64,000 nucleotides of DNA from an uncultured Staphylococcaceae bacterium (GTDB lineage: Bacteria > Bacillota_I > Bacilli_A > RFN20 > CAG-826). Position numbers and translations under genes: made by a program. Every line of letters starts with the position of its first letter. The first letter of the stretch is position 1. Below, piece after piece: positions 1,376 to 51,252 of this stretch. Location of the stretch: NCBI GenBank assembly GCA_964410505.1, contig CAYPGR010000002.1, forward strand, positions 15,939-79,938, written 5' to 3'. The notes beneath the pieces were generated by a model, which saw only the letters and a list, made by a program, of their open reading frames with translations, did no database searches and was not told the origin of the DNA.

Positions 1376-1530
1376 GCCATTCACTACGTGAATTGACTTA
1401 CTTTATCATTAATCACTTCCGTTTTTTTTCATAATAAAATGACTAACGCCTGCGAATTTCCAATTTTCTATGCTTAACAATCCGGGTTGTAATAGAATAG
1501 ATATAGTACTTTTGAAAAGAGGATTAAATA

Positions 1531-2718
1531 ATGGATATTTTTAAAAAATGTTATGCTTTCGATACTGCTAAAAAACTTAAGGAAAGTGGTCATTATCCCT
1601 ACTTCCACGAGTTAGAATCAAAACAAGACATCGTCGTCGAAATGGAAGGCAAAGAAATGATCATGATTGGTTCGAATAACTATCTTGGTCTCACCTCACA
1701 TCCTGAAGTCATTCAAGCCTCGGTTGAGGCGACAAAAAAATATGGAACCGGTGTATCGGGGTCCCGGTTTTTAAATGGCACGCTCAACCTCCATGTTACT
1801 TTAGAAAAAGAACTTGCAGCTTTCCTTAATAAAGAGGATTGCACGATATTTGGAACAGGATTCCAAGCTAATCTTGGGATTATCTCTGCCATTGCGGGAC
1901 GTCATGATATTATTTTTTCGGACCGTGAAAATCATGCCTCTATTTATGACGGCAATAAACTCAGTTATGCCGAAGTTGTTCGTTATCACCATAATAATAT
2001 GGAAGATTTGGAAGAAAAGCTAAAAGATGCACCCGTTAATCGCGGTAAATTAATTGTCACGGATGGCGTTTTTTCAATGAGTGGTGATATTGCTAATCTC
2101 CCAGAAATTGTGCGCCTCGCAAAACAATATGGTGCTCGCGTGATGGTTGATGATGCTCATGGTTTTGGGGTGATGGGTCCGACGGGACGCGGGACCGCTG
2201 AACACTTTGGCTTAGAACAAGAAGTCGATATTATTATGGGGACTTTTTCAAAATCATTAGCCTCATTAGGAGGGTATGTTGTTGCGGACAAGGATGTTGT
2301 TGATTACATCCGGCATCATTCTCGTCCCTATATCTTTTCAGCCGCCATCCCAGCGGCTAACACGGCTGCGGCACTAACAGCCTTACGGATCATCAAACGA
2401 GAACCTGAGCGTGTAAAAGCGCTGATTGATATCGCAAACTATATGCGGCAAGGTTTAAAGGCGAAAGGGATTAAGATTAAAGAATCATCAACGCCGATTA
2501 TTCCAATTTATACCTATACACCGATGCGCACCATGATGGCGTGTAATATGCTTTTTGAACACGGGGTTTACGTCAATCCTGTCTTACCACCCGCGACACC
2601 TGTCGGAGAATGTCTTATCCGGACCAGCTATACTGCGACGCATACCCCTGAATTACTTGATAAGGCCATTGAAAAAATAGCATTTGTGCTCAAAGAACTT
2701 GAAGGATTTGAGGAATAG
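1531..2718 (+). CDS. PLP-dependent alpha-oxoamine synthase, serine palmitoyltransferase-like
   Basis: GSNNYLGL, GTGVSGSRFLNGT, NHASI, DDAHG, GTFSKS (PLP lysine) and VNPVLPPATP...LIRTS. These resemble bacterial SPT more than BioF or KBL. Confidence 0.75.
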   Translation: MDIFKKCYAFDTAKKLKESGHYPYFHELESKQDIVVEMEGKEMIMIGSNNYLGLTSHPEVIQASVEATKKYGTGVSGSRFLNGTLNLHVTLEKELAAFLNKEDCTIFGTGFQANLGIISAIAGRHDIIFSDRENHASIYDGNKLSYAEVVRYHHNNMEDLEEKLKDAPVNRGKLIVTDGVFSMSGDIANLPEIVRLAKQYGARVMVDDAHGFGVMGPTGRGTAEHFGLEQEVDIIMGTFSKSLASLGGYVVADKDVVDYIRHHSRPYIFSAAIPAANTAAALTALRIIKREPERVKALIDIANYMRQGLKAKGIKIKESSTPIIPIYTYTPMRTMMACNMLFEHGVYVNPVLPPATPVGECLIRTSYTATHTPELLDKAIEKIAFVLKELEGFEE

Positions 2719-2721
2719 CAT

Positions 2722-3528
2722 ATGGTTATCATCGTAACTGGAGCGTCCTCCGGAATTGGTCGTTCTTTAGTGCGATTTTTCGCGCAAAAAGGGCATCATG
2801 TTTATGGTTTATCACGTTCAAAATTTATCGAAGATCAAGTAGAAAGCCTACAATGTGACGTCACGAATCTGAATGATATCGAAAAGACGTTTGCCTATAT
2901 TTTTAAAAAAGAAGGCCGTATTGATGCGTTAATTAATAATGCTGGGATGGGCATCTCGGGCAGTATTGAGGATACGTTAAAGGATGATGCGGAAACTCTA
3001 TTTAATGTCAATTTCCTTGGTGTATTTCTGACAACAAAAGCGGTGCTTCCATATATGCGCGAAGGGGGAGCGGGAAAGATTTTTAATATCAGTTCAGTCG
3101 CCTCCCGGTTATCAATCCCTTTTCAATCTTTTTATAGCGCTTCAAAAGCGGCGATCAATACTTTTTCAGAAGCATTAGCAAATGAAGTAGCGCCTTTCAA
3201 TATTGGTGTTTGTGTTATTCTACCAGGAGATATTCGTACAAACTTCACGATGAACCGCAAGAAAAATAGGCTTGATGGACCCCTTTACCGTGAGCGGATT
3301 GCCCAATCGATTCAGGTGATGGAAGCGGATGAACAAAACGGGATGGATCCGAGTGTATTATCAAAAGTGGTTGGTAAATTACTTAAGAAAAAACGATTAC
3401 CACTTTATAAAACAATCGGTGTGAAATATAAAATATTTATCTTGTTACATAAACTATTACCGGCAAAACTAACAAATGCGATTGTTGGATCAATCTATGG
3501 GTTTAAGAAAACCAAACCAAGAGACTAA
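2722..3528 (+). CDS. Classical short-chain dehydrogenase/reductase (SDR), 3 nt downstream of the SPT-like gene
   Basis: TGASSGIG, NNAG, catalytic Ser (ISSVA) and YSASK. Confidence 0.9.
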   Translation: MVIIVTGASSGIGRSLVRFFAQKGHHVYGLSRSKFIEDQVESLQCDVTNLNDIEKTFAYIFKKEGRIDALINNAGMGISGSIEDTLKDDAETLFNVNFLGVFLTTKAVLPYMREGGAGKIFNISSVASRLSIPFQSFYSASKAAINTFSEALANEVAPFNIGVCVILPGDIRTNFTMNRKKNRLDGPLYRERIAQSIQVMEADEQNGMDPSVLSKVVGKLLKKKRLPLYKTIGVKYKIFILLHKLLPAKLTNAIVGSIYGFKKTKPRD

Positions 3529-3705
3529 AGGATATTTTCGCGGCGACTGTTCTAATTCGGTTTGGTTATAGAAAACGATATATCATCCATATCGATGGAT
3601 TAAACCAATAAAAATAGCGTTTACATCTTTTGTTTTAAAGTTTCGATAATAGACAATGATGGCTGATAAGTATAAAATTAAACTAAGATGAGTTCGGAGG
3701 ATTTC

Positions 3706-6183
3706 ATGAGGAAATTCGGTTATATAGTCGCCATCTTAACGTTTAGTTTCATGGCGCCATTAGTTGGTAAGACGCAGTATAAACCGATTTCGGCTGCTTT
3801 AAGTGCCCGTCCGATCGATGTGACGAATGCATCAGAATCAGTCATCCGTAATTATTACGCAAATTTAAATAATCTCAGTGAAACTGAGCGACAAGGCGAT
3901 AATCTTTTAAAGAACTTAAAACCAATTTTAAAAAATGGCCACGCGAGTTTTAACTATGCAACCGTATGGGACTGGACCAAAATTACCGACCGCGATTGGA
4001 ATCTTTCACCCATGACCCCTGCTGAACTTTCCAATTATGCTTTTAATGATAATCCTTATGTTAAACTTCTATATCGCAGTGACAATGGCACAAGTACCGC
4101 AGCCCAACATGGGGATGCACATGGCCAAGTCATCGACCGTGAACATGTTTGGCCGAAATCACTCGGAAACTTTGGTGAAAATGCTCCCGCAGGCACAGAT
4201 TTACATCATCTAATCCTCGCAGACTCCAAAAATAATCAGATTGGCCATAATCAATATGCTTATGGGAATGTAAATCCGGAGGACTATACACCGATTGATA
4301 GCTATGATAATCCAGATAATCCGACGAATGTTAATGTTTTTACGGGAAAAAGAGGAACCATTACGTATAATGGGCAAACCGCGACCGTATATGAACCACA
4401 AACTTTTGATAAAGGGGATATTGCCCGAGCGATGTTTTATATGGCGGCTCGCTATTCTTCATATACGAGTCCAAGTGATCCCTACTTAAAACTTTCCAAT
4501 TCATTAAATAGTATTGTCTCTACTACTTCAACTACGACTATTCCTGGTCAAGGGGGCCTTCTTGATGTTCTTTTGACTTGGCATACCATTGATCCGGTAG
4601 ATGATTATGAAATCAAACGGAATAATCTTATCTATCACAATGCCCAATTCAACCGGAATCCGTTTATCGATTATCCGTCATGGGTCGATAGTGTATGGGG
4701 TAGTAAAGTTGCTGCCAATCCCGCGCTTGATGATGTTGCTTTGTTTGGTGAACAAGGGAGTGTGACGCCAACGGCACTCGCGTTATCACCAACAATCCTT
4801 TCTTTAGGGGTTAGCGATACATCAAATTTAACCCTTAGCGTCACGCCAATAAGTGCAAGTAAGAGTGTCACTTGGTCGTCATCAAATGAACAAGTTGCCA
4901 CCGTCACCAACGGCACGGTAACGGCTTTAGCGATTGGGACGACAACCATTACTGCAACCTCAACGCTCGACACGAATGTAAAAGCAACCATGACACTTTC
5001 TGTTGTTGCTGAACATATTAAAAAGTTAGAAGGGATTTCTTTATCTGGCATCACTGGGATAGTTAAATATGGTGATCTATATCCACTTCAAAATATCGTG
5101 GTGACTGCGACCTATGATGATGGCTCAACTGCAAATGTTACAGCCTCATCAACAATTCCAGGTCCAAGTATGACGACGTTAGGAGATCAATCGCTTGTGG
5201 TTACATATACCGAAGGTGGCGTAACGAAGTTTGCTAGTTACAATGTAAAGGTGACTAATAACGGCGTTGTCGTTGGTGATGTTGTCCGTGTGGCCACTGA
5301 TCTATTTATTTCTGAATATATTGAAGGTAGTAGTAGCAATAAGGCGATTGAAATCTATAATGGGACGGGTTCATCAATTATGATGTCTGCCTACCAAATA
5401 GTCGTGTATTCAAATGGTTCGGCAACTCCTTCAAATACGATTACTTTAAGCGGGACATTACTAAATAATCAGACTTATAAAGTCGTACATTCAAATGCAA
5501 ACAACCCCCTTCTGACCCTGGCAGATTTGCAAAGTGGTTCACTTTTACATAACGGTAATGATGCGGTTGCACTGCATAAAAATGGTGTACCAATCGATAT
5601 AATGGGAACGATTGGCTCTGCCGATATTTTTGCAGAAAATGTTACTTTGGTGAGAAAATCCGCCATATTTTCGCCGACTACAACATTCAATGCGCTTGAA
5701 TGGACTACATATGCTCAAGATACCTTTACTTACCTCGGTAGTCATGACTATAGCGCCACGATGCCAGGCTTAACCGCTGAAACCCAAGCAACGGCCTGGG
5801 CGGACTATTTTTTAGAAGTAACGGGAGTATATTGTGAAACGGAAGCAGGCGAAACCTTAGCGGGTTCGATATGGACTACCCTCGGGCTAGAATACGGTTA
5901 TATGGATGCTTCTAGTAAGACCCTTTTTGCTAACACCACAGCAGATCCTGATGGGGTAGGCATTGCAGGGGCAAAGGCTCGATATCATTTTCTGATTACC
6001 AAGTATTCACTTTTAGATTCCAATAATTTTATGACTAATGGTTCTAACCAAGCAATCTATAGTCTTTTATCAAATAGAAGTACAAGCGCAACACACGTAA
6101 ATGACCTCCTCTTATTAGGGGTGCTCGGAAGTATTGCCTTGCTTGGGTTTGTGAGTTATAAGAAAAGAAAATTCAATCATTAA
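3706..6183 (+). CDS. Membrane-anchored extracellular endonuclease I family nuclease with Ig-like and lamin-tail-like domains
   Basis: Start at ATG 3706 after GGAGG. Signal-like N-terminus; DREHVWPKS, KGDIARAMFYMAARY and NRNPFID (endonuclease I); WSSSNEQVATV (Big_2); LFISEYIEGSSSNKAIEIYN (LTD); C-terminal TM helix followed by KKRK. Confidence 0.85.
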   Translation: MRKFGYIVAILTFSFMAPLVGKTQYKPISAALSARPIDVTNASESVIRNYYANLNNLSETERQGDNLLKNLKPILKNGHASFNYATVWDWTKITDRDWNLSPMTPAELSNYAFNDNPYVKLLYRSDNGTSTAAQHGDAHGQVIDREHVWPKSLGNFGENAPAGTDLHHLILADSKNNQIGHNQYAYGNVNPEDYTPIDSYDNPDNPTNVNVFTGKRGTITYNGQTATVYEPQTFDKGDIARAMFYMAARYSSYTSPSDPYLKLSNSLNSIVSTTSTTTIPGQGGLLDVLLTWHTIDPVDDYEIKRNNLIYHNAQFNRNPFIDYPSWVDSVWGSKVAANPALDDVALFGEQGSVTPTALALSPTILSLGVSDTSNLTLSVTPISASKSVTWSSSNEQVATVTNGTVTALAIGTTTITATSTLDTNVKATMTLSVVAEHIKKLEGISLSGITGIVKYGDLYPLQNIVVTATYDDGSTANVTASSTIPGPSMTTLGDQSLVVTYTEGGVTKFASYNVKVTNNGVVVGDVVRVATDLFISEYIEGSSSNKAIEIYNGTGSSIMMSAYQIVVYSNGSATPSNTITLSGTLLNNQTYKVVHSNANNPLLTLADLQSGSLLHNGNDAVALHKNGVPIDIMGTIGSADIFAENVTLVRKSAIFSPTTTFNALEWTTYAQDTFTYLGSHDYSATMPGLTAETQATAWADYFLEVTGVYCETEAGETLAGSIWTTLGLEYGYMDASSKTLFANTTADPDGVGIAGAKARYHFLITKYSLLDSNNFMTNGSNQAIYSLLSNRSTSATHVNDLLLLGVLGSIALLGFVSYKKRKFNH

Positions 6184-6190
6184 ATAATCT

Positions 6191-7267
6191 TTATAAAATT
6201 TGTGATGCTAACGTTTTAAGATAATCTTTTTTCAATAGGTTTAAAATATCACGATATGAATATAATTCCACATCACGTAATAAATGATAGAGATTATAAA
6301 AAATTTGGTCAGTGTCTGTTTTAGGGTTATCGTAATCTTTCGCTTGCCATCCTTCGGTTGCTTCACGCATTAAAGAAATAACATAACGACGTAACATTAC
6401 AATCATTGCTTCTTCAATCCAATAAAGAAATTTGCATGAACCAGCTTTCTTTTCAAGGCCTCTAAATTTTAGATATAGTGGAAAGCCATCATCTACTGTG
6501 CGCCAAATGTCAACAAAAGCATAGTCGTAACTTTCTTGTGCCATTGTTTCTTGTAGATAAATGAAGGCATCATTTTCGATGATATGGATTTTCTCTTGAT
6601 GTGGGAATTGCGGTAAAATATGTTCCTTGAAAAGGGCAATGATTTTAGGATCTTTTTCAACAATTGTAACCGAAGAAACTGTCGGTTTGAGAGCAGCCAT
6701 AAAGGCAAAGTAACCTAACCCTAGACCAAAAGTAATGACTTTACCGGTGACGGTTTCAATTGCTTTTTGCATCGTTTCGATTTCATTTGGAGTAATTGAC
6801 ATCCATGTAATATTATCTTGTGCTAAATTGAGATATGTAAAAGGCTCTTTACAGATTCCAACTTGGTAAATTTCTTGAAAGTATTTTCTCTCATTGACCA
6901 TTACATCATCGGCAATAAAGGCTTCATACGGTTTATAAGTAACAGGTTCAAGATGCCAGGCGACATCACGGATCTGGTGAAGTGAGATCGTTTTATAGTA
7001 AGGGTTATTCTCATATTTTTTGGCTTCAATGATGCTTACTCTACAGATGGGGAAAGGGGCACTCTTAATATTCAGTTTTCGTCGCATCATAATCTCATAA
7101 GCTTTTTCCTCTGGTAAATCGATCTTAATCAACGAATGAGGTTTAATCGTTCGTGCATGGGATTGCACAAAATTTAAAACATAGTGAGCATTTTGAATGT
7201 TTGTTTCAAGCATTGTAAATAATTGATCCAATTCTCTTTCATCTTGACGGGTTAGTGATATTTTCAT
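6191..7267 (-). CDS. Class I SAM-dependent methyltransferase-fold protein (spermidine-synthase-like fold), function unknown
   Basis: VITFGLGLGY motif I, VTIVEKD, NDAF, YDYAFVDIW. Confidence 0.65.
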   Translation of the reverse strand: MKISLTRQDERELDQLFTMLETNIQNAHYVLNFVQSHARTIKPHSLIKIDLPEEKAYEIMMRRKLNIKSAPFPICRVSIIEAKKYENNPYYKTISLHQIRDVAWHLEPVTYKPYEAFIADDVMVNERKYFQEIYQVGICKEPFTYLNLAQDNITWMSITPNEIETMQKAIETVTGKVITFGLGLGYFAFMAALKPTVSSVTIVEKDPKIIALFKEHILPQFPHQEKIHIIENDAFIYLQETMAQESYDYAFVDIWRTVDDGFPLYLKFRGLEKKAGSCKFLYWIEEAMIVMLRRYVISLMREATEGWQAKDYDNPKTDTDQIFYNLYHLLRDVELYSYRDILNLLKKDYLKTLASQIL

Positions 7268-7445: not shown

Positions 7446-7543
7446 AGGTAAAAATAAATTATGTTGTTATTTATTCCTATAGCCTTTTTGCTATGCTTAA
7501 CCTGTAGCGATTTTCGCTAAAAATGAATAAAAGGAGATTCAAC

Positions 7544-8416
7544 ATGAATAAATTCGTGATTATTACTGACGCGACATGTGACTTACCACAAGCGCTTGTG
7601 GCCGCCCATAAACTTGATTATATTCCAATGGAAGTTAATTTTGGAGAAGAAGTTATTAAACAATATTTAGATGAAAGAGACTTCAAATTGGTGGATTTCT
7701 ATAAACGACTTGATAATAAAGAACTTGCGAAGACAAGCTTAATCAATATGCAAACGTTTATGGAAAAATTCACCCCTTATTTAGAAAAGGGAATCGATGT
7801 GATCTACATCGGTATTAGTAGTAACTTGTCAGCGAGTTTTGCCCAAGCAAACTTAGCTAAGGAAGAATTAGAACATACTTTTAAAGGTCGTACAGTACGG
7901 CTTGTCGATAGCAAGAGTGCAAGTATCGCCGAGGGCGTTCTTGTTTTAGAAGCACTCAAGAAACAAGAAGAAGGTCATAGTCTTGAAGAAGTCGCCCGCC
8001 ATGTTGAAAACATGGTCCAAAAAACGATTGCTTTTTTAGTGCCGATTAATCTTGATACATTACGGCGCGGGGGACGGGTGAGCGGCGTTAAGGCGCTTAT
8101 TGGTGACGCTTTCCGCATTAAACCAATCTTGAAGCTTGATGCTGAAGGTAAATTAAGCCAAGCTGGGAAAGCAAAAGGTTTTAAAATGGCCCTTCATACG
8201 ATTATTGATTTGACAAAAGAAAAGATTACAGGGCCATATAGTGGGCCTGTTTATATTGTCCACGCCAATAATGAGGCCGATGCCAAGTTATTAGGCGATT
8301 TATTCAAAGAAGCTCACGGTGGTGGTGATATAACAATTGGTGCTTTAGGCCCTGTTATCTCCGCACATACGGGAACAGGCGCTGTTTGCCTTGTTTTCTT
8401 TGGCAATAGCCGATAA
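7544..8416 (+). CDS. DegV/FakB family fatty-acid-binding protein
   Basis: IITDATCDLP, ISSNLSAS, DSKSAS, GGRV, KPIL, HTGTGA. Start at ATG 7544 after AAGGAG. Confidence 0.92.
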   Translation: MNKFVIITDATCDLPQALVAAHKLDYIPMEVNFGEEVIKQYLDERDFKLVDFYKRLDNKELAKTSLINMQTFMEKFTPYLEKGIDVIYIGISSNLSASFAQANLAKEELEHTFKGRTVRLVDSKSASIAEGVLVLEALKKQEEGHSLEEVARHVENMVQKTIAFLVPINLDTLRRGGRVSGVKALIGDAFRIKPILKLDAEGKLSQAGKAKGFKMALHTIIDLTKEKITGPYSGPVYIVHANNEADAKLLGDLFKEAHGGGDITIGALGPVISAHTGTGAVCLVFFGNSR

Positions 8417-8576: not shown

Positions 8577-9232
8577 ATGAAAAGTAAATATGTATCAATT
8601 AAAAAAGCCGCAGAAATACTTGGTGTTTCTGCGGATACCCTCCGTAGATGGGATAGAGAAGGAAAACTAACGACAATTAAAACCGAAGGAGGTCATCGTC
8701 GTTATGCTATTTCCGCATTACGTCCTTAATCAGTTCATAAGTTTAATCCGCTTGAAAGTCGGAGAACAATCGCCTATGCCCGAGTCTCAAGTCATGATCA
8801 AAAAGCTGATTTAGTTAGACAACAACAAGTATTAGAACTTTTTTGTGCGAAGAACGGTTGGACATATGAAATTATAAGTGATTTAGGTTCAGGAATGAAC
8901 TATCATAAAAAAGGATTAGTAAATTTACTTAACTTAATTTTAAGTGGGAAAATAGGACGTTTAGTGTTAACGCATAGAGATAGACTTCTTCGTTTTGGAG
9001 CTGAACTTTTTTTAGTGTTTGTGAAATTCAAGAAATTGAAGTTGTAATTATAAATAAGGGAAGTGAAGTTAGTTTTGAAGAAGAATTGGCGGGTGACGTC
9101 CTTGAAATTATAACTGTCTTCTCAGCGCGCCTCTACGGAGCAAAAAGTAAAAAGAATAAAAAATTAGTGGATGGACTTAGTAAAATTGCGCATGAGGTAA
9201 TAAGTGATACTAGCCCACCAGATCAAATTTGA
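8577..9232 (+). pseudogene. tnpA: IS607 tnpA (MerR-type HTH + serine recombinase), disrupted
   Basis: MKSKYVSIKKAAEILGVSADTLRRWDREGK, then AYARVSSHDQK and DRLLRFG, then EELAGDVLEIITVFSARLYG. In-frame TAA at 8727-8729 (codon 51) and a 1 nt frameshift in the T7 run at 9007-9013. Confidence 0.9.
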
Positions 9233-10307
9233 ACCAAACAACAAACAAGTAACTTACTTTAAAAAAGCAAGTGGTGTTGCCCGTTTTGCTTATAACTGGG
9301 CTCTTTCTTTCTACAAAGAACAACGTGAACTTGATGATACTTATAAATTTAACGAGATGGAACTCCGGAAGATTTTAAACTCCATAAAACATGAAAAATA
9401 TCCGTGGATGGATGAAGTAACGAAATGTGCGCCTCAACTCGCGATTAAAGTAAATCTTAACAATGCTTTTCGTAATTTCTTTAAAAAGAACGCTGAATAC
9501 CCAAAATTCCATAAAAAAGGAATTCATGACTCTTTTGCGCTTTCTAACGACCAATTCAAGATAAAAGATAATAAAGTGTGGATACCTAAACTTGGCTGGG
9601 TGAAGATGAGTGAAACACTTCGTTTTACTGGCAAAGTCATTAGTGCAACTATAAGCGGCCGTGCCGGACTGTGGTTCATTAGTGTTCAAGTCGAGATGCC
9701 AGATAAGGAAACGATTAGAAACGATAATGATGTAATAGGTGTTGATTTAGGCGTAGAAACACTTGTCACTCTATCAAACGGCGAAAAGTATCAAGGAGTG
9801 AAAGCAACCAAGAAATACGAAAAAAAATTAAGGAGGTTACAACAAAGTTTATCTAGATCGGTGGGGAGTAAAAAGGGAGAGAAAAAGTCGAATAATTTTT
9901 GTAAGAAACAAGCGAAGATAAGTAAACTTTATTTTAAGATTTTTAATGCTCGTAATAACCAAACACACGAGTTAACAACGATGATTGTGAAAACATATAA
10001 AACAATATGTGTTGAAGACTTACATGTTGAACAAATGCTTAGTGATAACAAGTATGCAAAGTATATAGCTGACAGTTCTTTTTATGAGTTTAGAAGACAA
10101 TTAGAATATAAAGCAAACCTTTATGGTTCTAATATGATTACCGCGGATACTTATTACCCCTCAAGTAAGATATGTTCTGGGTGTGGAAAGAAAAAAGAGA
10201 GTCTTTCAATAAGCGAAAGAACTTACACCTGCAGTTGTGGTCTATCTATTGACCGCGACATTAATGCGGCAATTAACTTACATAATTACGCACTGAAAAT
10301 AATATAA
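9204..10307 (+). CDS. tnpB: TnpB RNA-guided endonuclease (IS200/605/607 type), apparently intact
   Basis: N-terminal HTH (ARFAYNWAL), RuvC D (GVDLG), E (VEDL) and D (DRDINAA), zinc finger CSGC...CSC. GTG start overlaps the tnpA tail. Confidence 0.92.
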   Translation: MILAHQIKFEPNNKQVTYFKKASGVARFAYNWALSFYKEQRELDDTYKFNEMELRKILNSIKHEKYPWMDEVTKCAPQLAIKVNLNNAFRNFFKKNAEYPKFHKKGIHDSFALSNDQFKIKDNKVWIPKLGWVKMSETLRFTGKVISATISGRAGLWFISVQVEMPDKETIRNDNDVIGVDLGVETLVTLSNGEKYQGVKATKKYEKKLRRLQQSLSRSVGSKKGEKKSNNFCKKQAKISKLYFKIFNARNNQTHELTTMIVKTYKTICVEDLHVEQMLSDNKYAKYIADSSFYEFRRQLEYKANLYGSNMITADTYYPSSKICSGCGKKKESLSISERTYTCSCGLSIDRDINAAINLHNYALKII

Positions 10308-10455
10308 AGAAAAACTGCCGTGAGTTACACGGCGGCAGCCTGTGGAGAGTTCTCGCATTAGCCCCTCAATGAAGCAGGAATTGAACAGTAAGTTTAACTA
10401 GAAATAATTAGATTTACATAAGTTTCAAGTAACGGTTGGATAATAGGGACAGCGG
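10308..10455 (+). ncRNA. TnpB omega-RNA (reRNA) scaffold plus flank-derived guide; 5' end may overlap tnpB
   Basis: Hairpin GCCGTG-agtta-CACGGC and the GCCTGTGGAG...CTCAATGAAGCAGGAA core typical of tnpB 3' ends. Predicted guide TTGGATAATAGGGACAGCGG (10436-10455). Confidence 0.7.
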
Positions 10456-10988
10456 GCTTCGATACAACTCGGATTCTTTTTATAAAACCCGCATTTAATT
10501 GTTGTTAATTCCATCGTGAGATTTTCTTTTTCATTGATCCGTTTGACGGCCTCGGAGATTGATGTGAAGGCATTTCGTTTACAGCATCGTGGTCCACCGA
10601 TTGCGGCCATCTTATTGATGACGTTTGATGTATAAGTCATATTATCTCGATAATGTTCGTCGGTGGAGAGGGGGCCAGTTTCATAAATGATTGACATGGC
10701 TGCTCCAAGGGAAGTGACAGAACCACATACACCCCAAAACCCACACATCGCGCCTGGCATCGCCATCGTACGGCCTTTAAGGGTTTCAAGTGCTGCTTCA
10801 AGATCAAGATGCCCACCCGCATTCACATAGGCAGCAAGAAAAGCTCCGCCATCAAGAAAGTGATGTTCAGGTCCGTGCATATTGATGTAATCTTTGCGCA
10901 TAATCGAAAGCGCGATATGAAGCGGATTTTTCCCTTTAGCGGTTAAAAGCTCTTGTTTGATTAGATCGTACTTTTCAATGAGTTCCAT
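10425..10988 (-). CDS. DUF5714-like Cys-rich protein; last codons come from the IS right end
   Basis: HGPEHH, PGAMCGFWGVCG, GGPRCCKR, C-x6-C-x4-CPYY. Confidence 0.7.
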   Translation of the reverse strand: MELIEKYDLIKQELLTAKGKNPLHIALSIMRKDYINMHGPEHHFLDGGAFLAAYVNAGGHLDLEAALETLKGRTMAMPGAMCGFWGVCGSVTSLGAAMSIIYETGPLSTDEHYRDNMTYTSNVINKMAAIGGPRCCKRNAFTSISEAVKRINEKENLTMELTTIKCGFYKKNPSCIEARCPYYPTVT

Positions 10989-11098: not shown

Positions 11099-11959
11099 TT
11101 ATTTATGTGCATCAATCTTGAGGTTAAAGCCCATGCCAATTGTTCCTGGTCCTGCGTGGGCACAAACGTTAATAGAAATTGGACGGACAGTCAAAGTATA
11201 TTCCGGAAAATGTTCATTAAAGAATGATTTAACAAGTTCAAGGTTACTTGGGAGTGTGGCAAATTGTAGAATTTCAATGGTGTACTTATCAGGTGTATAA
11301 CCGCGGCTTTTTAAATCATTTAATTGTTCAAGAAGCGCCTTCTTTAGATTTCGAGTGGTCCCTTTTTTTCCGATTTCACCTTTTTCAAAAGTAAGAATCG
11401 GTCGTAAACCAATAAAGTTACCAATTAAGGCGACTGCGGGTGAGACCCGACCACCATTTTTAAGATAAGTTAAGGACTCAGGAATAAATAGCGCGTATTC
11501 GGTATCGACGCGGTCTTTAAACCGATTGCCGATTTCTTCTAATGTTGCCCCTTCATCCCGCCATTTTTTAGCCGCAAGGACATGATTGGCCATAAAGTGG
11601 CAAACAGACGAAGAGTTCAGTACGAGTACGCGATCGCCATATAACTCCTGGCACATTTTAGTGAAAAGATCATACATTGAAGAAAGTTTTTGCGAAATGG
11701 TGAAATGAACCACATGGTCATAACCTGCGGCAAAAATTTTATCAAAGTATTGTTCAATTTCATAAGGGGTTGGGGTTGAGGTAGAAATGCGGCGATTGGC
11801 ACGCATAAAATTAATCAGTTCCTCTTTGGTAATATCAATATCATCATGATATTCTTTGCCATCCACGATGACGTTTAAAGGCATGACGTAGATGCCTAGC
11901 TCTGTCGCCTCCCGTTGGGTAATGGCGAGGGTTGAATCGGCGCTAATTGCTATTTTCAT
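11099..11959 (-). CDS. DegV/FakB family fatty-acid-binding protein
   Basis: ISADST, STSTP, ISQKLSS, NGGRV, RPIL, HAGPGTIG. Confidence 0.9.
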   Translation of the reverse strand: MKIAISADSTLAITQREATELGIYVMPLNVIVDGKEYHDDIDITKEELINFMRANRRISTSTPTPYEIEQYFDKIFAAGYDHVVHFTISQKLSSMYDLFTKMCQELYGDRVLVLNSSSVCHFMANHVLAAKKWRDEGATLEEIGNRFKDRVDTEYALFIPESLTYLKNGGRVSPAVALIGNFIGLRPILTFEKGEIGKKGTTRNLKKALLEQLNDLKSRGYTPDKYTIEILQFATLPSNLELVKSFFNEHFPEYTLTVRPISINVCAHAGPGTIGMGFNLKIDAHK

Positions 11960-24954: not shown

Positions 24955-27021
24955 ATGAGTTATACAACAGAGAAAATTAGAAATATATTATTCTTAGGCC
25001 ATCAAGGTTCTGGGAAAACAACGCTTGTTGAAACGATTATTAGTAATGTCTTAAATCAACCAGCGGGATCAATTGAAAAGAAGAATACAGTGAGTGATTT
25101 TACGACCGAAGAAAAAAATCGCCTCAGTTCTTGTTCTTTAACGGTTTCCTCGCTCGATTATAATGGTTACCATTTAAATTTATTAGATGCTCCGGGTAAT
25201 GATGACTTTGTGGCTGATATTATTGGTGTCCTTGATATGGTTAAGGCCGCGGTACTTGTCATTGACGCCACCAAAAAAATCGAAGTCGGGACTGTCAAAC
25301 ACTACAATATGCTTAAGAAGCACGGGATTCCGACCTTCATCTTTGTTAATAAAATGGACAAGGAACTCATTAATTTTGATGCTTTACTTGAACAAATCAC
25401 CGATCGACTTGGTAAAAAAGCGGTTAGCTTCGTCTATCCACTTGGGAAAAATGAAAATTTCGATGGCTTTATCAATGTGATTTCTCGTAAAGCTCGCAAA
25501 TATGATGGTGGCAATGTCGTCGATGATATCGTGCATGATGATAAAAAGGAAAAAGTTCTTGAACTCCATAACGCTTTAGCCGAGCAAGTCGCGTTAACCG
25601 ATGATGCCCTCCTTGATAAGTTCTTTAGTGGTGAATCGTTATCGATGGAAGAAATACGAGCAGGTCTTCACAAAGCCGTCTTGGGTGGAGAAATTGCACC
25701 AGTCCTCGTTGGGAGTAGCGTTAAAAATATTGGCGTGAATACGTTACTTGAAATGATGATTGAGTATTTGCCAAATCCAGCGATTCTTAAAGCTTATGTG
25801 GGCAAAGATCGGAATGGCCATGAGGTCAAACGATTAACTGACGTCAATGAACCCTTTAGTGCTTACGTCTTTAAAACGGTCTTTGATCAATATAAGGGCG
25901 TAACGAATTACCTCAAAATTATAAGCGGTGTACTAAATGTTGGTGATGAAGTTTTTGTCCCTGCTCTTAATAACTCATTCCGCGTTTCGCAAATGTTTAG
26001 CCTCCTTGGCCAAAAACAAACGCCAATTCAAAGCGCGATCAGTGGTGATATTGTTGCCCTTGTTAAACTTGATAACGTGAATACAGGACACACATTATGT
26101 GATAAAAATAATGTCATTATTTATCCAAAAGCTAAATATCCGACGATTGTATATCGCCGCGGTATTCGCTCAAAAACGGGTAAAGATGATGAAAAACTTG
26201 TCCAGTCACTTTATAAAGTCGCCGCCGAAGATCCGACCATTGAAATTGTACGCGTTCCTGAAACGAAACAATTACTCCTTGGTGGCTTAAGTGACTCGCA
26301 CTTAAACTTCATCCTTGAACGTGTTAAGAATAGTTTTGGGTTTGAAGCTGTCACTGATCAACCCCAAATTATATATCGCGAGACGGTTAAAAAAGAAGCG
26401 AGTGCGGTCGGGCGTTATGTGAAGCAATCGGGCGGTAGCGGCTTCTACGGTGTCGTGGAGATGCGCTTTATGCCAAGCGGCACCGACGAAAATATATTTG
26501 TCGAAGAAATCTTTGGGGGAACCGTTCCTAAAAACTATCACCCTGCGGTCGAAAAAGGATTCTTTGAAAGTGTCCAACAAGGTTTACTAGCCGGGTTCCC
26601 AGTCATTGGTTTAAAAGGGGTCCTCTTTGACGGTAAATATCATTCCGTCGACTCAAATGAACAAGCCTTTAGAATGGCGGCCATCTTAGCGTATAAAGAA
26701 GCCTATATGAAATGTGGGCCAACCTTACTTGAACCGATTCGAAAGATTTCCATAAATGTCACCAATGAATGGACTGGTAACGTTATGAATGACTTGAATC
26801 AACGGCGGGCCCGCATTCTCAGTATGGATGAAAAAGGGTATGGGATTCAAGAAATTGTCGCCTTAGTGCCAGAAGCAGAATTACTTGATTATGCGATTAA
26901 ATTACGGGTGTTAAGTCAAGGAAGTGGTTACTTTAATAGTGAATTTGATAGCTATCAAGAAGTACCAGCAAACTTATTACAGTCCGTCATAAGTGCAAAT
27001 AGTCGTTTAGAAAATAAATAA
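24955..27021 (+). CDS. Elongation factor G paralogue (EF-G2/FusA2 type)
   Basis: GHQGSGKT, DAPGNDDF, NKMD, KQSGGSG, DGKYHSVDSNE, PTLLEPI; G2 and G3 are divergent. Confidence 0.88.
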   Translation: MSYTTEKIRNILFLGHQGSGKTTLVETIISNVLNQPAGSIEKKNTVSDFTTEEKNRLSSCSLTVSSLDYNGYHLNLLDAPGNDDFVADIIGVLDMVKAAVLVIDATKKIEVGTVKHYNMLKKHGIPTFIFVNKMDKELINFDALLEQITDRLGKKAVSFVYPLGKNENFDGFINVISRKARKYDGGNVVDDIVHDDKKEKVLELHNALAEQVALTDDALLDKFFSGESLSMEEIRAGLHKAVLGGEIAPVLVGSSVKNIGVNTLLEMMIEYLPNPAILKAYVGKDRNGHEVKRLTDVNEPFSAYVFKTVFDQYKGVTNYLKIISGVLNVGDEVFVPALNNSFRVSQMFSLLGQKQTPIQSAISGDIVALVKLDNVNTGHTLCDKNNVIIYPKAKYPTIVYRRGIRSKTGKDDEKLVQSLYKVAAEDPTIEIVRVPETKQLLLGGLSDSHLNFILERVKNSFGFEAVTDQPQIIYRETVKKEASAVGRYVKQSGGSGFYGVVEMRFMPSGTDENIFVEEIFGGTVPKNYHPAVEKGFFESVQQGLLAGFPVIGLKGVLFDGKYHSVDSNEQAFRMAAILAYKEAYMKCGPTLLEPIRKISINVTNEWTGNVMNDLNQRRARILSMDEKGYGIQEIVALVPEAELLDYAIKLRVLSQGSGYFNSEFDSYQEVPANLLQSVISANSRLENK

Positions 27022-27142: not shown

Positions 27143-28045
27143 ATGAATAAATTAACATTCAGAGACATTAAAAAAACAGACTACAAAGATGCCAATATTG
27201 TCTTCACTGGAATCCCATTTGATGACAATGCGAGTCTTGGTAAAGGGGCAAGTCACGCCCCAGCCTTTTTACGAGCTTTAAGTGAAAATATTCCGGGCGT
27301 CACCCGCGCTGCAAAACTATTAGATAAGGTTTCTTTATTTGATAATGGCGATATCGTCCGCAAAGAAAAAGAATCGATTCCAAGCTATTTTAACCGCGTT
27401 GAAAAGGCCGTTTCACCTCTTTTTGCGCCTGGTAAGTTAAATGTCTTTATTGGGGGTGACCATAGTGTCAACATTCCCCTCTTTAAGGCTTTTTTATCAT
27501 TTTGTGACCTTCATCACAAAACACCAGTCTTAATCCATATTGACGCCCATCCCGATATGATGGATGATTATCTAGATAACCGCCTTTCCCACGCCACCCC
27601 AGCCCGTCGGGCTTTAGATCACGGCTTGAAGCAAGAAAACCTTGTTTTTATTGGTCTTCGTGGTTTTGAACGGGAAGAAGTTGTATATTTTAATGAAAAT
27701 CCGGCGATTACGGTTTACCTTGCCGGTGATGTTCGTCGTCTAGGCACGAGTCCCATCATTGAAAGTGTCACCAAACGTTTTCAAAGCGATGAGTATGCCA
27801 TTTATGTAAGTTATGATATCGACGCGAATGATCCAGCTTACGCCCCAGGGACAGGCACACCAGAAGCTTTCGGACTTAAAAGTCTTGATACCTTACGGTT
27901 AACAAGTGCATTCGTGGCTTTAAAAAACACCTACGCCATTGATTTTGTCGAAATCAGTCCGCCACTTGATGTCAATGATATGACAAGTTGGCTTGCCTTA
28001 AAAACACTTTATGAACTATTTTATATTCAAGGAGAAAAAAGATAA
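27143..28045 (+). CDS. Ureohydrolase (agmatinase/arginase family)
   Basis: GGDHS, HIDAHPD, SYDIDANDP and APGTGTPE; the Mn ligands are present. The N-terminal GIPFD...GASHAP motif is agmatinase-like. Confidence 0.88.
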   Translation: MNKLTFRDIKKTDYKDANIVFTGIPFDDNASLGKGASHAPAFLRALSENIPGVTRAAKLLDKVSLFDNGDIVRKEKESIPSYFNRVEKAVSPLFAPGKLNVFIGGDHSVNIPLFKAFLSFCDLHHKTPVLIHIDAHPDMMDDYLDNRLSHATPARRALDHGLKQENLVFIGLRGFEREEVVYFNENPAITVYLAGDVRRLGTSPIIESVTKRFQSDEYAIYVSYDIDANDPAYAPGTGTPEAFGLKSLDTLRLTSAFVALKNTYAIDFVEISPPLDVNDMTSWLALKTLYELFYIQGEKR

Positions 28046-28855
28046 ATGAAGAAACATTTGACCCTCGATGCCTATGGCGCCAAAAATCTACATCTAGACG
28101 ATATTAAATACATTAATGACGTTTTAAATAAAGTTATTTATGAATTAAAACTCGATCCAGTTACCCCGCCCCAACTTATTCCTTATTACTACGGAAAGGT
28201 AAAAGAGGACATTGGTGTCACCGCCTATATGCTTTTAGAAGGGGGGCATATTACGATTCATACCTTCCCATTACGTGAATGTTATTTTGTCGACCTATTT
28301 GTACCGACTTCATTTGATGATAAACGGGCCCTTGAGTTATTCCATGAACTTTTACCATATAAATTTGATATGAGTTTATCGGAAGTAGTCGATCGTGATC
28401 AAAAAGAATTAGAAAGTTATGAATATGATCCAAATACTGATTTTGGGCCGCATATTATGAATGAAATTGTGGCGAAAAGTGTGCCGACGATGGAAACATT
28501 TTATGATTTCCTTGAAAACTTTGTCACCAAAATTAATATGGATCCAATTACCCGCGCGAGTGTCCATAAATCAACCGTCCTTAAACCAAAATATCTCTCA
28601 GGCATTATTATTATTGCCCAAAGCCATGTCGCTCTTCACTATAACTATAAAACCAAAACCATCATGGCGGATGTTTTTAGTTGTGCCCCGTTTGATTTTA
28701 GTTTAATGCGCGATTTTTATGCTGAACTCGGTGATACTGTCAGTGATCGTTTGATTGCCCGTGGAACGAAACATATTTATAAAGTGCGTTCCAAAGTTAA
28801 AAAAGACGACTTACGAGCCTCAACCAGGTGGCAAAAGGCGATGAAAATCAAGTAG
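28046..28855 (+). CDS. Tandem-domain pyruvoyl-dependent decarboxylase proenzyme of the AdoMetDC/SpeD fold
   Basis: Domain 1: KHLTLDAYG...GVTAYMLLEGGHITIHTFP...VDLFV. Domain 2: FGPHI...SGIIIIAQSHVALH...DVFSC. Confidence 0.75.
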   Translation: MKKHLTLDAYGAKNLHLDDIKYINDVLNKVIYELKLDPVTPPQLIPYYYGKVKEDIGVTAYMLLEGGHITIHTFPLRECYFVDLFVPTSFDDKRALELFHELLPYKFDMSLSEVVDRDQKELESYEYDPNTDFGPHIMNEIVAKSVPTMETFYDFLENFVTKINMDPITRASVHKSTVLKPKYLSGIIIIAQSHVALHYNYKTKTIMADVFSCAPFDFSLMRDFYAELGDTVSDRLIARGTKHIYKVRSKVKKDDLRASTRWQKAMKIK

Positions 28856-41880: not shown

Positions 41881-42900
41881 ATGAAAATAAGAAAACTTTT
41901 ATTGGGCCTTGTGGCATTAACGATTCTTTCGGCTTGTAAACCAACTTCAAGTAGTGAACCAACCGAAAGCAGTGAAACCCCAAGTGTTACCAGTCAACCT
42001 GAAGTCACGAGCGAACCTGACGTCACAAGTGACGTTGTCTCAAGCAGTGAAGAATCAAGTTCAGCCCCTTCATCTAGTGAATGGGTGCCACCAACCCCTG
42101 TTTGGCAACCTGCTTTAACGATGAGTTTTACGCCCATGGCGGAATATAGCGGCTCATTCTGGAATACGATCGATTTTAACTTACGGGGTGAAGACCTTAA
42201 AACAGCACTCTTCAACTATCTGAATCCTAAGAAAAAACTCATTACTTACGGAGAAACCATGGGTGCTTTACGGGAAATGGACCGGGACCCAAGTAATTCA
42301 AATAACATTCTCTCAATCTATGACTTAAAATCACATCCTGGGGCAACATACAATGGTGGTAAATGGAATAAAGAACACTCATACCCACAATCAAAATTAA
42401 AAGATGGCAACGAATCACTTGGCGCCTCCAATAATGTGGCAAATATCTCAAGTGACGTTGCAAACCTCTTTGCAAGTGATGCCGACTTAAACACAACCCG
42501 TAGTAACAATAGTTATGGCGAATGGAATTACACAAGTGATCCCCAAACACTTTATGAATTCACTTTAACGAATACTGCTGGTCAAAGAGTTGATTCCATT
42601 TTACGCCGCGGTTATTTCTCACCAACCCCGCTTGTTCGTGGTGAAATTGCCCGGGCTCAACTTTATATGTTAGTGATGTATCCAACCCAATGTGCACTAG
42701 GTGAAAACTTTGCTATTCAAACAATGATTAAGTGGGATCGTGAACATGTGCCAACCGTTGAACGTGATGGCCAACGCCAAACAGGTATTCAAAAATACCA
42801 AGAAATTCGGAACCCATTTATCGACAATCGTAACTTATCATGCTATATTTGGGGCGACACTAACATTCAAACCCGTTCACTTTGTAACGGAATTTACTAA
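41881..42900 (+). CDS. Lipoprotein endonuclease I family nuclease
   Basis: Lipobox LSAC, S/T/E/P linker, WNKEHSYPQS, RGEIARAQLYM, RNPFID. Confidence 0.85.
   Translation: MKIRKLLLGLVALTILSACKPTSSSEPTESSETPSVTSQPEVTSEPDVTSDVVSSSEESSSAPSSSEWVPPTPVWQPALTMSFTPMAEYSGSFWNTIDFNLRGEDLKTALFNYLNPKKKLITYGETMGALREMDRDPSNSNNILSIYDLKSHPGATYNGGKWNKEHSYPQSKLKDGNESLGASNNVANISSDVANLFASDADLNTTRSNNSYGEWNYTSDPQTLYEFTLTNTAGQRVDSILRRGYFSPTPLVRGEIARAQLYMLVMYPTQCALGENFAIQTMIKWDREHVPTVERDGQRQTGIQKYQEIRNPFIDNRNLSCYIWGDTNIQTRSLCNGIY
41980..42033 (+). repeat. Three imperfect 18-nt tandem repeats encoding P-x-V-T-S-x in the lipoprotein linker
   Basis: CCAAGTGTTACCAGTCAA / CCTGAAGTCACGAGCGAA / CCTGACGTCACAAGTGAC. Confidence 0.6.
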
Positions 42901-48284: not shown

Positions 48285-48677
48285 ATGCATCCAGTATTAG
48301 AATTCTTACTACTATTCGTTGTCGCTTTTGGTGTTTTTATTGTCGTTGATTTAGTGTGGCTCGTTGTGATTGCTCGTAAGCTTTATAAAAAGTATCTTGG
48401 TTATATTATGACCGACAAGGTGAGATGGGGCGCGGCCTTAATCTTCTATGTTATTTTCATTGCCGGCCTTGTTTTCTTTGCGATTATGCCAGCAAATAAC
48501 GCCCTCATGGCCATGCTTTATGGCGGCTTACTTGGATTTTTAGGTTATGCAACGTACGATTTAACGAATCTTGCGACCTTAAAAGGATGGCCGGTTGCCG
48601 TGACTATTATTGATCTTATTTGGGGCACAAGTCTTGGCGCCATTGTGTCTGTTTTAACTTTCTTAATTGTCCGCTAA
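48285..48677 (+). CDS. DUF2177 family membrane protein
   Basis: DLVWL, YATYDLTNLATLKGWP, IDLIWG. Confidence 0.88.
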   Translation: MHPVLEFLLLFVVAFGVFIVVDLVWLVVIARKLYKKYLGYIMTDKVRWGAALIFYVIFIAGLVFFAIMPANNALMAMLYGGLLGFLGYATYDLTNLATLKGWPVAVTIIDLIWGTSLGAIVSVLTFLIVR

Positions 48678-48687
48678 AAGGAGTATT

Positions 48688-51247: not shown

Positions 51248-51252
51248 AGACT

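Follow-up and report, generated by a model that had tools for sequence, protein, structure and literature searches.

Genes and features of the locus

The 64 kb stretch of DNA analysed here (the window) carries two adjacent genes on the forward strand: a PLP-dependent alpha-oxoamine synthase (AOS) of 395 aa (1531..2718, +), probably of the serine palmitoyltransferase (SPT) type to judge by its ORF, its profile and structure matches and our trees, and a classical NADPH-type SDR of 268 aa (2722..3528, +), which its ORF, profiles and motifs mark as a KdsR-like candidate for a 3-ketosphinganine reductase. Both open reading frames lie exactly where the original prediction had placed them, down to the gap of 3 nt at the junction TAG-cat-ATG. 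Since the AOS stop and the SDR start are this close, the sequence suggests translational coupling of the two. The Shine-Dalgarno element of the SDR, GAGGAA (2710..2715, +), sits within the last codons of the synthase gene, and that of the synthase, AGAGGA (~1519-1524, +), lies 7 nt ahead of its ATG. By inspection, the 5′ intergenic region of the operon spans 1376..1530 (+); a promoter scan upstream gave weak 9/12 matches only, at 1380-1409 and 1512-1541, and an Rfam search upstream of the pair returned nothing at gathering score, including no T-box or riboswitch that would hint at an amino-acid substrate.

The host is a wall-less member of the family Acholeplasmataceae. This family belongs to the Mycoplasmatota in the NCBI taxonomy and is placed in the Bacillota/Firmicutes by GTDB only, a qualification to the Bacillota lineage first named for this locus.

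A search for a third gene conserved with the pair yielded no lipid-related candidate. The flanking genes in the window, for a PAS-GGDEF protein (upstream) and a secreted nuclease, are kept in no relative; a GGDEF gene does lie near the pair in some relatives. Most relatives have rpoBC/psuK-psuG on one side of the pair and rpsL-rpsG-fusA-tuf on the other, with a small gene of the FNT family coming next, and no neighbour of this set has a link to lipids. As originally noted, bioA/B/D and threonine dehydrogenase (tdh) genes are missing nearby: neither the 64 kb window nor the 7.4 kb preceding it yielded any, and bioW is likewise absent from the surroundings. Three DegV modules, at 7523-8416, at 11099-11959(-) and in the C-terminal half of 48667-50442, had been offered as support for a lipid role. 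They are indeed present in the window, but we dropped them as evidence because DegV genes are common in Bacillota and are not conserved beside the pair.

The synthase

The Pfam profile Aminotran_1_2 matches AOS residues 42-383 (E 7.5e-63), and the best NCBIfam model is that of the CFB-type SPT (NF047600), at 537 bits against an equivalog cutoff of 640. SPT is thereby the top-scoring family, by a margin of 118 bits; beta-proteobacterial SPT scores 419, ALAS 283 and CqsA 226 bits, and the scores against KBL (406, cutoff 460), BioF (402, cutoff 426), NF047599 (419, cutoff 500) and NF047603 (337, cutoff 670) are all below cutoff. The top PDB matches are all AOS enzymes; the nearest are the structures of Sphingobacterium multivorum SPT (SmSPT; 3A2B/8GUH) at 422 bits, followed at a distance by KBL (~276), cysteate acyltransferase (250-260) and CqsA (131). 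The alignment to SmSPT runs without gaps across 386 residues at 49.5% identity, while identity to E. coli Kbl is 36% and to E. coli BioF 31%. The SPT-like assignment made at the outset is thus borne out, with SPT models and structures scoring far above those of KBL, BioF, ALAS, CqsA and cysteate acyltransferase, and we regard the AOS as probably an SPT-type enzyme. By NCBI rules neither this protein nor the SDR would be named SPT or KdsR, since neither reaches the equivalog cutoff curated for its model (537 < 640; 263 < 400). Homologs of the AOS carry the public annotation “8-amino-7-oxononanoate synthase.”

The motifs originally read as SPT-like are all present, with GSRFLNGT at 77, GFQANLG at 110, PPATP at 353 and LIRTS at 362, and the sequences given for comparison prove accurate: GSRFLNGT occurs in Sphingobacterium SPT and RPPATP in Sphingomonas SPT, whereas SVRFICGT and YPVVP are found in E. 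coli Kbl and IRPPTVP in E. coli BioF. The Schiff-base lysine, K241, lies within GTFSKS (237-242), a motif characteristic of SPT (PMC10196870), where E. coli Kbl has GTLGKA. The AOS differs from Kbl and BioF in the PLP-lysine motif, in the GSRFLNGT loop (SVRFICGT in Kbl) and in the C-terminal loop.

For the active site, we compared the AOS with the catalytic and serine-contact residues listed for SmSPT (PMC10196870). Around the PLP, H135, D207 and H210 correspond to SmSPT His138, Asp210 and His213 and are identical in 46/46 orthologs. Identity to SmSPT extends, in SmSPT positions, over N52, Y54, G80, S81, F83, F114, H138, S185, D210, A212, H213, T241, S243, K244, F272, S273 and A274, and the listed residues are identical or almost so across the 46 orthologs. 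The carboxylate/hydroxyl network that contacts serine is retained as N49, G77, S78 and S240 (SmSPT Asn52, Gly80, Ser81 and Ser243). Two positions depart from SmSPT: Met271, a main-chain contact, is Ile268 in the AOS, and Ala79 is Ser76, a serine that recurs throughout the Bacillota-type sequences. SmSPT Ala79, the counterpart of Cys133 in human SPTLC1, touches the substrate side chain through water. The serine hydroxyl is itself recognised in SmSPT via the PLP phosphate and water molecules (PMC10196870), and amino-acid specificity cannot be read from the sequence. One further position separates SPT from the cysteate enzymes: Lys281 of SulA/CFAT, 30 residues past the catalytic lysine, is alanine in Spt (PMC9304779), and it is alanine (Ala271) in the AOS and in 46/46 orthologs, and part of FSA in all of the Clostridia versions.

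In neighbor-joining trees with bootstrap, built on a limited sampling of references that left out SulA, ALAS and CqsA, Kbl and BioF split from all SPT-like sequences, including the AOS, at 86-91%, and a group of Kbl, BioF and SpSPT is separated from the remaining sequences at 86-87%. The phylogenetic check proposed for the synthase, within those limited references, therefore groups it with characterised SPTs and not with Kbl/BioF. All Bacillota-type AOS sequences are monophyletic (100% bootstrap), and in these trees their clade lies within the SPTs yet apart from every characterised one. Some caution towards the SPT reading comes from Nostoc, where an SPT-like annotation proved wrong (PMC8895605), although the protein concerned did not cluster with SPTs.

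The reductase

The SDR matches the Pfam profile adh_short (E 7.7e-50), and among the family models KdsR (NF049977) ranks first, with 262.7 bits over model positions 5-267 of 267, 58 bits above the next-best model (204 bits) and below the cutoff of 400. The same model comes out best for the SDRs of all 42 nearest representatives, with E values down to 1.8e-101 that are still sub-threshold. KdsR enzymes are classical SDRs recognised by their Gly-rich NADPH motif together with the catalytic triad Ser-Tyr-Lys (PMC9278070). Here TGASSGIG (6-13), NNAG (72-75), the catalytic tetrad N97/S125/Y138/K142 and the NADPH-type R32 are all intact, and the C-terminus (238-256) is amphipathic. The model ranking agrees with the ketoreductase role first proposed for this gene. 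Specificity is nonetheless unreadable from the sequence; 3-keto bases in Bacteroidota are reduced by several unrelated SDRs (PMC11211663). The main argument for the SDR as a candidate 3-ketosphinganine reductase is its genetic coupling to an SPT-type gene in 45/45 relatives.

Distribution and conservation of the pair

The SDR lies downstream of the AOS, by a few to ~40 nt, in 45/45 testable Acholeplasmataceae-type loci, and the pair recurs in the Clostridia-type loci L065, L066, L069 and L071, so the synteny asked of the synthase and SDR is clearly seen. The 100% bootstrap clade of the AOS extends to Clostridia, among them Oscillospiraceae and Lachnospiraceae, where the synthase is often accompanied by the same SDR. 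Mean identity of the AOS is 85-88%, against 89% for RpoB/RpoC and 87% for EF-G in the same genome pairs. Cultured carriers of the pair are Peloplasma aerotolerans M4Ah, Mariniplasma and Oscillospiraceae WX1.

Acholeplasmataceae and Clostridia are groups not regarded as sphingolipid makers. A sphingolipid was reportedly characterised chemically in Acholeplasma axanthum in the 1970s. Peloplasma aerotolerans, which carries the pair (locus L021), lacks both wall and LPS, yet has 3-OH C16:0 and 3-OH C18:0 (PMC11122141); these fatty acids fit a sphingoid base, if indirectly. The description of the system as “undescribed” somewhat overstated the case, in that the supplements of a genome-mining preprint list Spt-like proteins in Firmicutes_A MAGs.

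Genes for later steps

Searches by tblastn and with a C16-family HMM covered the window, the 7.4 kb preceding it and 46 Acholeplasmataceae loci and found no bCerS-like or CerR-like gene; genes for an ACP, an acyl-ACP synthetase or a head-group transferase were not found in these regions either. PAP2 and patatin homologs (tblastn and a custom HMM; window and 72 loci) were likewise not found in Acholeplasmataceae. The PAP2 gene of L066 was considered as a head-group transferase and set aside, being only generically PAP2-like.

Further afield, AOS homologs with 51-56% identity in Desulfuromonadales/Nitrospirota lie between HpnA-like reductase and GNAT-like genes, an arrangement that matches the layout described for Spt/CerR/bCerS clusters. 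The C16 GNAT family, our candidate for bCerS, has no NCBIfam match and a weak Pfam GNAT match (E 8e-4). Its genes flank SPT in Gram-negative clusters. The family is widespread in Clostridia, and in L065, the sole Clostridia-type locus so flanked, one member (9633-10883) lies at a distance of ~0.85 kb from the pair. An apparent linkage of a GNAT (P0511) with an Acholeplasmataceae AOS (P0038), both on sequences of 20,918 bp, was rejected: these are separate contigs.

Comparison with known pathways

The closest known enzyme is the Bacteroidota SPT (SmSPT 3A2B/8GUH; Bacteroides BT_0870 type; NF047600), with which the AOS shares fold, length, GTFSKS, GSRFLNGT, the named PLP and serine-contact residues and the alanine at the SulA Lys281 position. 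It differs in having Ser for Ala79 and Ile for Met271, in forming a separate, Bacillota-only clade (100%), in sharing an operon with its own reductase, and in its monoderm or wall-less hosts. The SDR, in turn, has the length, Gly motif, S-Y-K triad and NADPH-type features of Bacteroides thetaiotaomicron KdsR BT_0972 (NF049977). The Bacteroides KdsR gene is not clustered with SPT (PMC9278070), whereas the SDR here adjoins the synthase in every testable Acholeplasmataceae relative.

The Caulobacter-type pathway is described as Spt/bCerS/CerR (Stankeviciute et al. 2022, as relayed in PMC11087976 and a Black Sea preprint). Its first enzyme is of the same type as the AOS, but CerR-like and C16-type GNAT genes were not found in the window or the 46 Acholeplasmataceae loci, and the reductase is KdsR-type instead. 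Sulfonolipid synthesis (SulA/CFAT and 3-ketocapnine reductase; PMC9304779, PMC11211663) relies on enzymes of the same two types as the pair and shares its reaction logic; it is set apart by the alanine in place of SulA Lys281, by CFAT structures scoring 160 bits below SPT, and by cysteate synthase, which was not seen here. Its genes are unclustered in Bacteroidota, the capnine reductase genes likewise lying away from the synthase gene (PMC11211663). KBL-Tdh and BioF belong to the same AOS superfamily, and kbl-tdh is also a synthase-dehydrogenase pair, but the AOS differs in its separate clade, its 36%/31% identity, its motifs, its sub-cutoff scores and the lack of tdh/bio genes.

Proposed pathway and alternatives

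Homology, active-site conservation, clade membership, operon structure and synteny of the pair are established. Its membership in a pathway already known, though in a lineage where this was not expected, is well supported, and we consider it likely that the two genes form an operon for a sphingoid long-chain base. Substrates, product and order of steps are what we infer for it. The AOS would act as a homodimeric PLP-dependent SPT with its Schiff base on K241; L-serine would oust K241 to form the external aldimine, and a long-chain acyl thioester, whose donor may be acyl-ACP, would condense with the aldimine under loss of CO2 to give 3-ketodihydrosphingosine. The SDR would then act on the free base and reduce its C3 ketone, yielding sphinganine. 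The order of steps would be that of Bacteroides and eukaryotes and not that of Caulobacter, as a KdsR-type reductase implies reduction before acylation. N-acylation and head-group addition would presumably fall to genes elsewhere in the genome.

The alternative that deserves most attention keeps the chemistry and changes the substrates. The AOS could use alanine or glycine, which would lead to 1-deoxy bases, or cysteate, which would lead to capnine; it could also take homoserine or threonine, or else an acyl chain of an unusual kind. The SDR would again reduce the ketone, and a non-canonical aminolipid would be the product. We hold this to be rather unlikely. SPTs do accept alanine, glycine and homoserine (PMC10196870; PMC10191378), the position of SmSPT Ala79 and human Cys133 is an invariant serine in the Bacillota clade, this clade stands apart from all characterised SPTs, and 1-deoxyceramides are dominant in some anoxic environments. 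The cysteate variant is opposed by the alanine at the CFAT-specific lysine (SulA K281), by the scores of the cysteate acyltransferase structures (250-260 bits vs 422 for SPT) and by the absence of a cysteate synthase gene from the window; more generally, the remaining serine-contact residues are identical to those of SmSPT.

Two readings that lead away from membrane lipids strike us as very improbable. The AOS could be a housekeeping enzyme, KBL in threonine degradation or BioF in biotin synthesis, and the SDR could either be a neighbour without any connection to it or serve as a threonine dehydrogenase of the SDR type; the public names of its homologs, KBL and BioF model scores of ~400 bits and the known kbl-tdh operon type would fit. 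Both scores, however, fall short of the respective cutoffs and trail the SPT model by 130 bits, the motifs differ from those of Kbl and BioF, the clade separates from them at 86-91% bootstrap, bio genes and tdh are absent nearby in the window and in 46 relatives, and the SDR is a classical, KdsR-like protein of 268 aa, not a GalE-like threonine dehydrogenase. We give just as little credence to a CAI-1-type diffusible signal, an amino-ketone or hydroxy-ketone made by a CqsA-like synthase and a reductase in place of a membrane lipid. CqsA does belong to the AOS enzymes, CAI-1 maturation uses a dehydrogenase, and GGDEF genes occur near the pair here (PAS-GGDEF, upstream) and in some relatives; against it stand the CqsA scores of 226 bits (model) and 131 bits (structures) and the absence of a CqsS-like sensor nearby, while conservation at the level of RpoB/EF-G and a location amid genes for ribosomal proteins and RNA polymerase agree with a core structural role.

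Returning to the sphingoid-base operon, a broader reading is decidedly more tentative, and we think it somewhat more apt to be wrong than right. Sphingolipids would be a core, near-essential part of the membrane in free-living, wall-less Acholeplasmataceae, and many spore-forming Clostridia, Oscillospiraceae among them, would produce them as well; an ancient, Bacillota-specific SPT-KdsR operon would provide the base, and N-acylation in Acholeplasmataceae would be carried out by an enzyme unrelated to known ceramide synthases.

Biological significance

According to a 2023 review, sphingolipids have so far been detected in bacteria largely within Bacteroidota and certain alpha-Proteobacteria (PMC10191378). 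Gene-based predictions later than this review, as far as we have found, rely on the Spt/bCerS/CerR trio. Because cultured carriers of the pair exist, the lipid hypothesis is directly testable. Should the pair indeed make a sphingoid base, sphingolipids in Mollicutes would gain a genetic explanation, and abundant Bacillota of the gut and of other anaerobic settings would join the organisms from which bioactive sphingolipids may come. The two genes would also be a compact cassette for sphinganine production; the ceramide synthase of Acholeplasmataceae would then be missing and yet to be found. If the core-lipid reading is true as well, it would suggest that a third ceramide synthase awaits discovery in bacteria, and bacterial sphingolipids would shift from a speciality of Bacteroidota and Proteobacteria to a monoderm trait.

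The gene pair and its locus

Both open reading frames of the original prediction were confirmed: window 1531–2718 (+) encodes a PLP-dependent α-oxoamine synthase of 395 aa (Pfam Aminotran_1_2, E 7.5e-63) and window 2722–3528 (+) a short-chain dehydrogenase/reductase (SDR) of 268 aa (Pfam adh_short, E 7.7e-50), with TAG-cat-ATG at the junction. A Shine–Dalgarno sequence, AGAGGA, lies 7 nt 5′ of the synthase ATG, and GAGGAA occurs within the final synthase codons, ahead of the SDR start. Spacers of about 155 nt on each side set the pair off from its flanking genes; simple scans gave no convincing promoter or terminator for it, and no Rfam element was found upstream. The 5′ neighbors are a PAS-GGDEF gene, a Na/Ca exchanger, a Big_2 protein and FecCD permeases, and the 3′ neighbor is a secreted nuclease gene. 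The identical synthase protein is found on metagenome contigs in Logan, ENA and JGI (e.g., sample SRR8449813).

Two Endonuclease_1 proteins are encoded in the window (3688–6183 and 41881–42900); the former (831 aa) combines Big_2 and lamin-tail domains with a hydrophobic C-terminal anchor and is probably a surface nuclease scavenging nucleotides.

The synthase as a probable serine palmitoyltransferase

The motifs quoted for the synthase in the original prediction are all present in the protein, and the contrasts drawn there with Kbl, BioF and the Sphingobacterium and Sphingomonas serine palmitoyltransferases (SPTs) proved right when the sequences were checked. Among NCBIfam models, the Bacteroidota-type SPT scores best at 537 bits, followed by the beta-proteobacterial SPT (419), KBL (406), BioF (402), ALAS (283) and CqsA (226), the protein lying below the curated cutoff of every model scored. 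Against solved structures the scores are 422 bits for the Sphingobacterium multivorum enzyme (SmSPT), about 299 for Sphingomonas SPT, about 276 for KBL and 250–260 for cysteate acyltransferases.

The alignment with SmSPT runs over 386 residues with no gaps. Functional residues were taken from the high-resolution SmSPT complexes (PMC10196870; SmSPT number = window number + 3). Seventeen are the same in both enzymes, namely Asn52, Tyr54, Gly80, Ser81, Phe83, Phe114, His138, Ser185, Asp210, Ala212, His213, Thr241, Ser243, Lys244, Phe272, Ser273 and Ala274 in SmSPT numbering, and these are invariant or near-invariant across 46 orthologs. Only two positions of the set differ, Ala79 to Ser and Met271 to Ile. 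The first is Ser76 of the window protein; SmSPT Ala79, equivalent to human SPTLC1 Cys133, makes a water-mediated contact to the substrate side chain (PMC10196870), and Ser76 may specifically bear on amino-acid preference.

SulA, a cysteate acyltransferase, is reported to differ from Spt at a single active-site position, 30 residues past the catalytic lysine, where SulA has lysine and Spt alanine (PMC9304779); the window synthase has alanine there (Ala271). The phylogeny proposed as a check places the Acholeplasmataceae synthases among SPTs, with {Kbl, BioF} split from all SPT-like proteins at 86–91% neighbor-joining bootstrap. An SPT-like protein of Nostoc is a negative case (PMC8895605): unlike the window protein, it resembled SPT, KBL and BioF to about the same degree and lay outside the SPT clade. 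By its sequence, the synthase is of the SPT type.

The reductase

The best NCBIfam model for the SDR is KdsR, the Bacteroides 3-ketodihydrosphingosine reductase, with 262.7 bits across the full model length (cutoff 400, next model 204), and KdsR was best, and below cutoff, in 42/42 relatives scanned. The protein carries TGxxxGIG, NNAG, the Asn-Ser-Tyr-Lys tetrad and Arg32 after the second strand, the last a sign of NADPH preference in SDRs, as well as an amphipathic, moderately hydrophobic C-terminal segment. No close solved structure was found, the best being 3M1A at 128 bits, and a search of 1.84 billion representatives returned many proteins of about 265 aa with 40–60% full-length identity. 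The SDR is KdsR-like by sequence. Substrate specificity in SDRs is unreadable from sequence: in Bacteroidota 3-ketocapnine is reduced by several unrelated SDRs and 3-ketosphinganine by 1/4 candidates (PMC9278070, PMC11211663).

Synteny and constraint in Acholeplasmataceae

The nearest synthase homologs (77–84% identity) are all from Acholeplasmataceae, “Tenericutes,” Mariniplasma and Peloplasma genomes and MAGs, where their annotation goes no further than “PLP-dependent aminotransferase family protein” or else “8-amino-7-oxononanoate synthase”; the family is placed in Mycoplasmatota/Mollicutes at NCBI, and Acholeplasmatales in Firmicutes/Bacilli in GTDB-style lineages. Acholeplasmataceae-type loci make up 46 of the 58 recovered with the synthase, and in all 45 whose contig continues past the gene an SDR homolog (50–67% identity) follows from a few to about 40 nt after the synthase stop, bearing out the expected synteny. 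The usual order is rpoB-rpoC-(TrkA-like)-pseudouridine kinase-PsuG-synthase-SDR-small FNT-family gene-…-rpsL-rpsG-fusA-tuf. The window pair is relocated, not lying between rpoBC/psuK-psuG and rpsL-rpsG-fusA-tuf as in most relatives (loci L001–L042); the pair alone moves as a unit, unaccompanied by the surrounding genes. The small gene of the FNT family (formate/nitrite transporter-like, about 207 aa) lies directly 3′ of the SDR in 28 Acholeplasmataceae loci and is absent from the window. At times it overlaps the SDR stop codon (L001–L042 and L075; e.g., L075:12000–12632).

Mean synthase identity across the family is 85–88%, and on the same genome pairs it is 89% for RpoB and RpoC, 87% for EF-G, 92% for EF-Tu, 68% for the SDR and 49–70% for the neighboring PsuG, kinase and FNT genes. 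The synthase is conserved near the level of RpoB, RpoC and EF-G, a constraint that fits a core cellular function.

Relatives in other Bacillota

Further pairs were reached through the nearest SDR relatives. On the 1.06 Mb contig of locus L065 the synthase, 63% identical to that of the window, overlaps its SDR by 4 nt; its own homologs at 74–86% identity carry the names Oscillospiraceae, Lachnospiraceae, Ruminococcaceae, Feifaniaceae and Clostridia. The order ackA-synthase-SDR-rplU-rpmA is found in a 4.2 Mb chromosome and in the isolate Oscillospiraceae bacterium WX1, where sporulation genes lie close by. Locus L066, in Firmicutes-like surroundings (rnr-smpB … alaS with T-box-ruvX-DUF1292), has a same-strand string patatin-PAP2-synthase-SDR (L066:3013–6810), its synthase 68% identical to that of the window. 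This string, with its patatin-like lipase and PAP2 phosphatase/transferase, could be a larger sphingolipid operon, the PAP2 being assignable only generically. A Lachnospiraceae MAG has the synthase with no adjacent SDR, and two SDR relatives have no neighboring synthase. All Bacillota-type synthases form a single clade (100% bootstrap), within which L066 joins the Acholeplasmataceae (94%, neighbor-joining).

Connection to ceramide clusters

Synthase homologs at 51–56% identity from Deltaproteobacteria, Desulfuromonadales and Nitrospirota have on one side an NAD-dependent reductase of HpnA-like type and on the other a 373 aa protein, present once or twice, that shows a weak GNAT signal (family C16); the same arrangement is described for the Spt/CerR/bCerS cluster (PMC11087976; Black Sea preprint). 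Some 0.85 kb from the L065 pair, at L065:9633–10883 (−), is a full-length homolog of C16 (33% identity, E 1.5e-54); this protein, of about 375–416 aa, matches neither Pfam nor NCBIfam. Members of the family occur widely in Clostridia under the labels “hypothetical” or “GNAT family,” once beside a ketoacyl synthase. C16 is a candidate ceramide synthase, a putative bCerS equivalent.

The C16 HMM matched nothing in the window and nothing in the Acholeplasmataceae loci. In the window there is no ACP, fatty-acid synthase, acyl-ACP synthetase, ceramide synthase candidate or lipid head-group transferase, and because such lipid genes are missing from it, we infer which acyl donor and amino acid are used and what becomes of the base. 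The three DegV modules once cited as support do exist in the window; not being syntenic with the pair, they were dropped as evidence for a lipid pathway.

Other features of the window

Three overlapping same-strand ORFs at 48285–51247 encode a DUF2177 membrane protein, a 591 aa protein that joins the N-terminal and middle domains of FakA (YloV model 3–302 of 530) to an entire DegV/FakB domain, and a DUF1295/steroid-5-alpha-reductase-like membrane protein; the three look like an operon for lipid handling that includes an unusual fusion of kinase and binding protein. An agmatinase/arginase gene adjoins an AdoMet decarboxylase gene (27143–28855), and a 358 aa protein 2.7 kb downstream of the pair (6191–7267, −) gives a faint spermidine-synthase-like signal; together they may form a polyamine pathway. 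Further ORFs encode a TnpB/Cas12f-like IS605 OrfB with HTH, OrfB_IS605 and TNB domains and a GTG start (9204–10307), beside which no TnpA ORF was noted; a DUF5714 protein (10425–10988, −); an EF-G paralog sharing only 34% identity with the canonical FusA that related genomes carry (24955–27021), preceded by two small ORFs with no family match; UvdE UV-endonuclease fused to DUF1722 (51223–52533); and a TtcA/TilS-like PP-loop ATPase fused to a C-terminal GNAT domain (52537–53733, −).

Lipid chemistry and implications

Acholeplasma axanthum reportedly makes a sphingolipid with amide-linked 3-hydroxy acids, from work of the 1970s. The pair is carried by Peloplasma aerotolerans M4Ah (locus L021), and this wall-less species has 4.1% 3-OH C18:0 and 1.8% 3-OH C16:0, undiscussed by its authors, whose description gives no polar-lipid analysis (PMC11122141). 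These acids are the only chemical hint to the product of the pair. The strain is LPS-less as well as wall-less, yet has 3-OH fatty acids.

Bacterial sphingolipid detection was described in a 2023 review as mostly confined to Bacteroidota and certain alpha-Proteobacteria (PMC10191378). The Black Sea preprint reports Spt-like proteins in MAGs of 38 phyla, with Firmicutes_A in supplementary tables and Acholeplasmatales in an abundance table only, and our literature search found no paper tying Acholeplasma or Mollicutes genomes to SPT. In Bacteroidota the reductase gene is not clustered with SPT (PMC9278070, PMC11211663), whereas here the two form a coupled operon, which is therefore a distinctive mark of the Bacillota version.

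The reading of the pair as a putative SPT with its reductase was backed by every computational test available, and we consider it probable that the product would be a sphinganine-type long-chain base. The N-acylation step is missing and the enzymes and chemistry are familiar; what is unexpected is the lineage and the gene organization.
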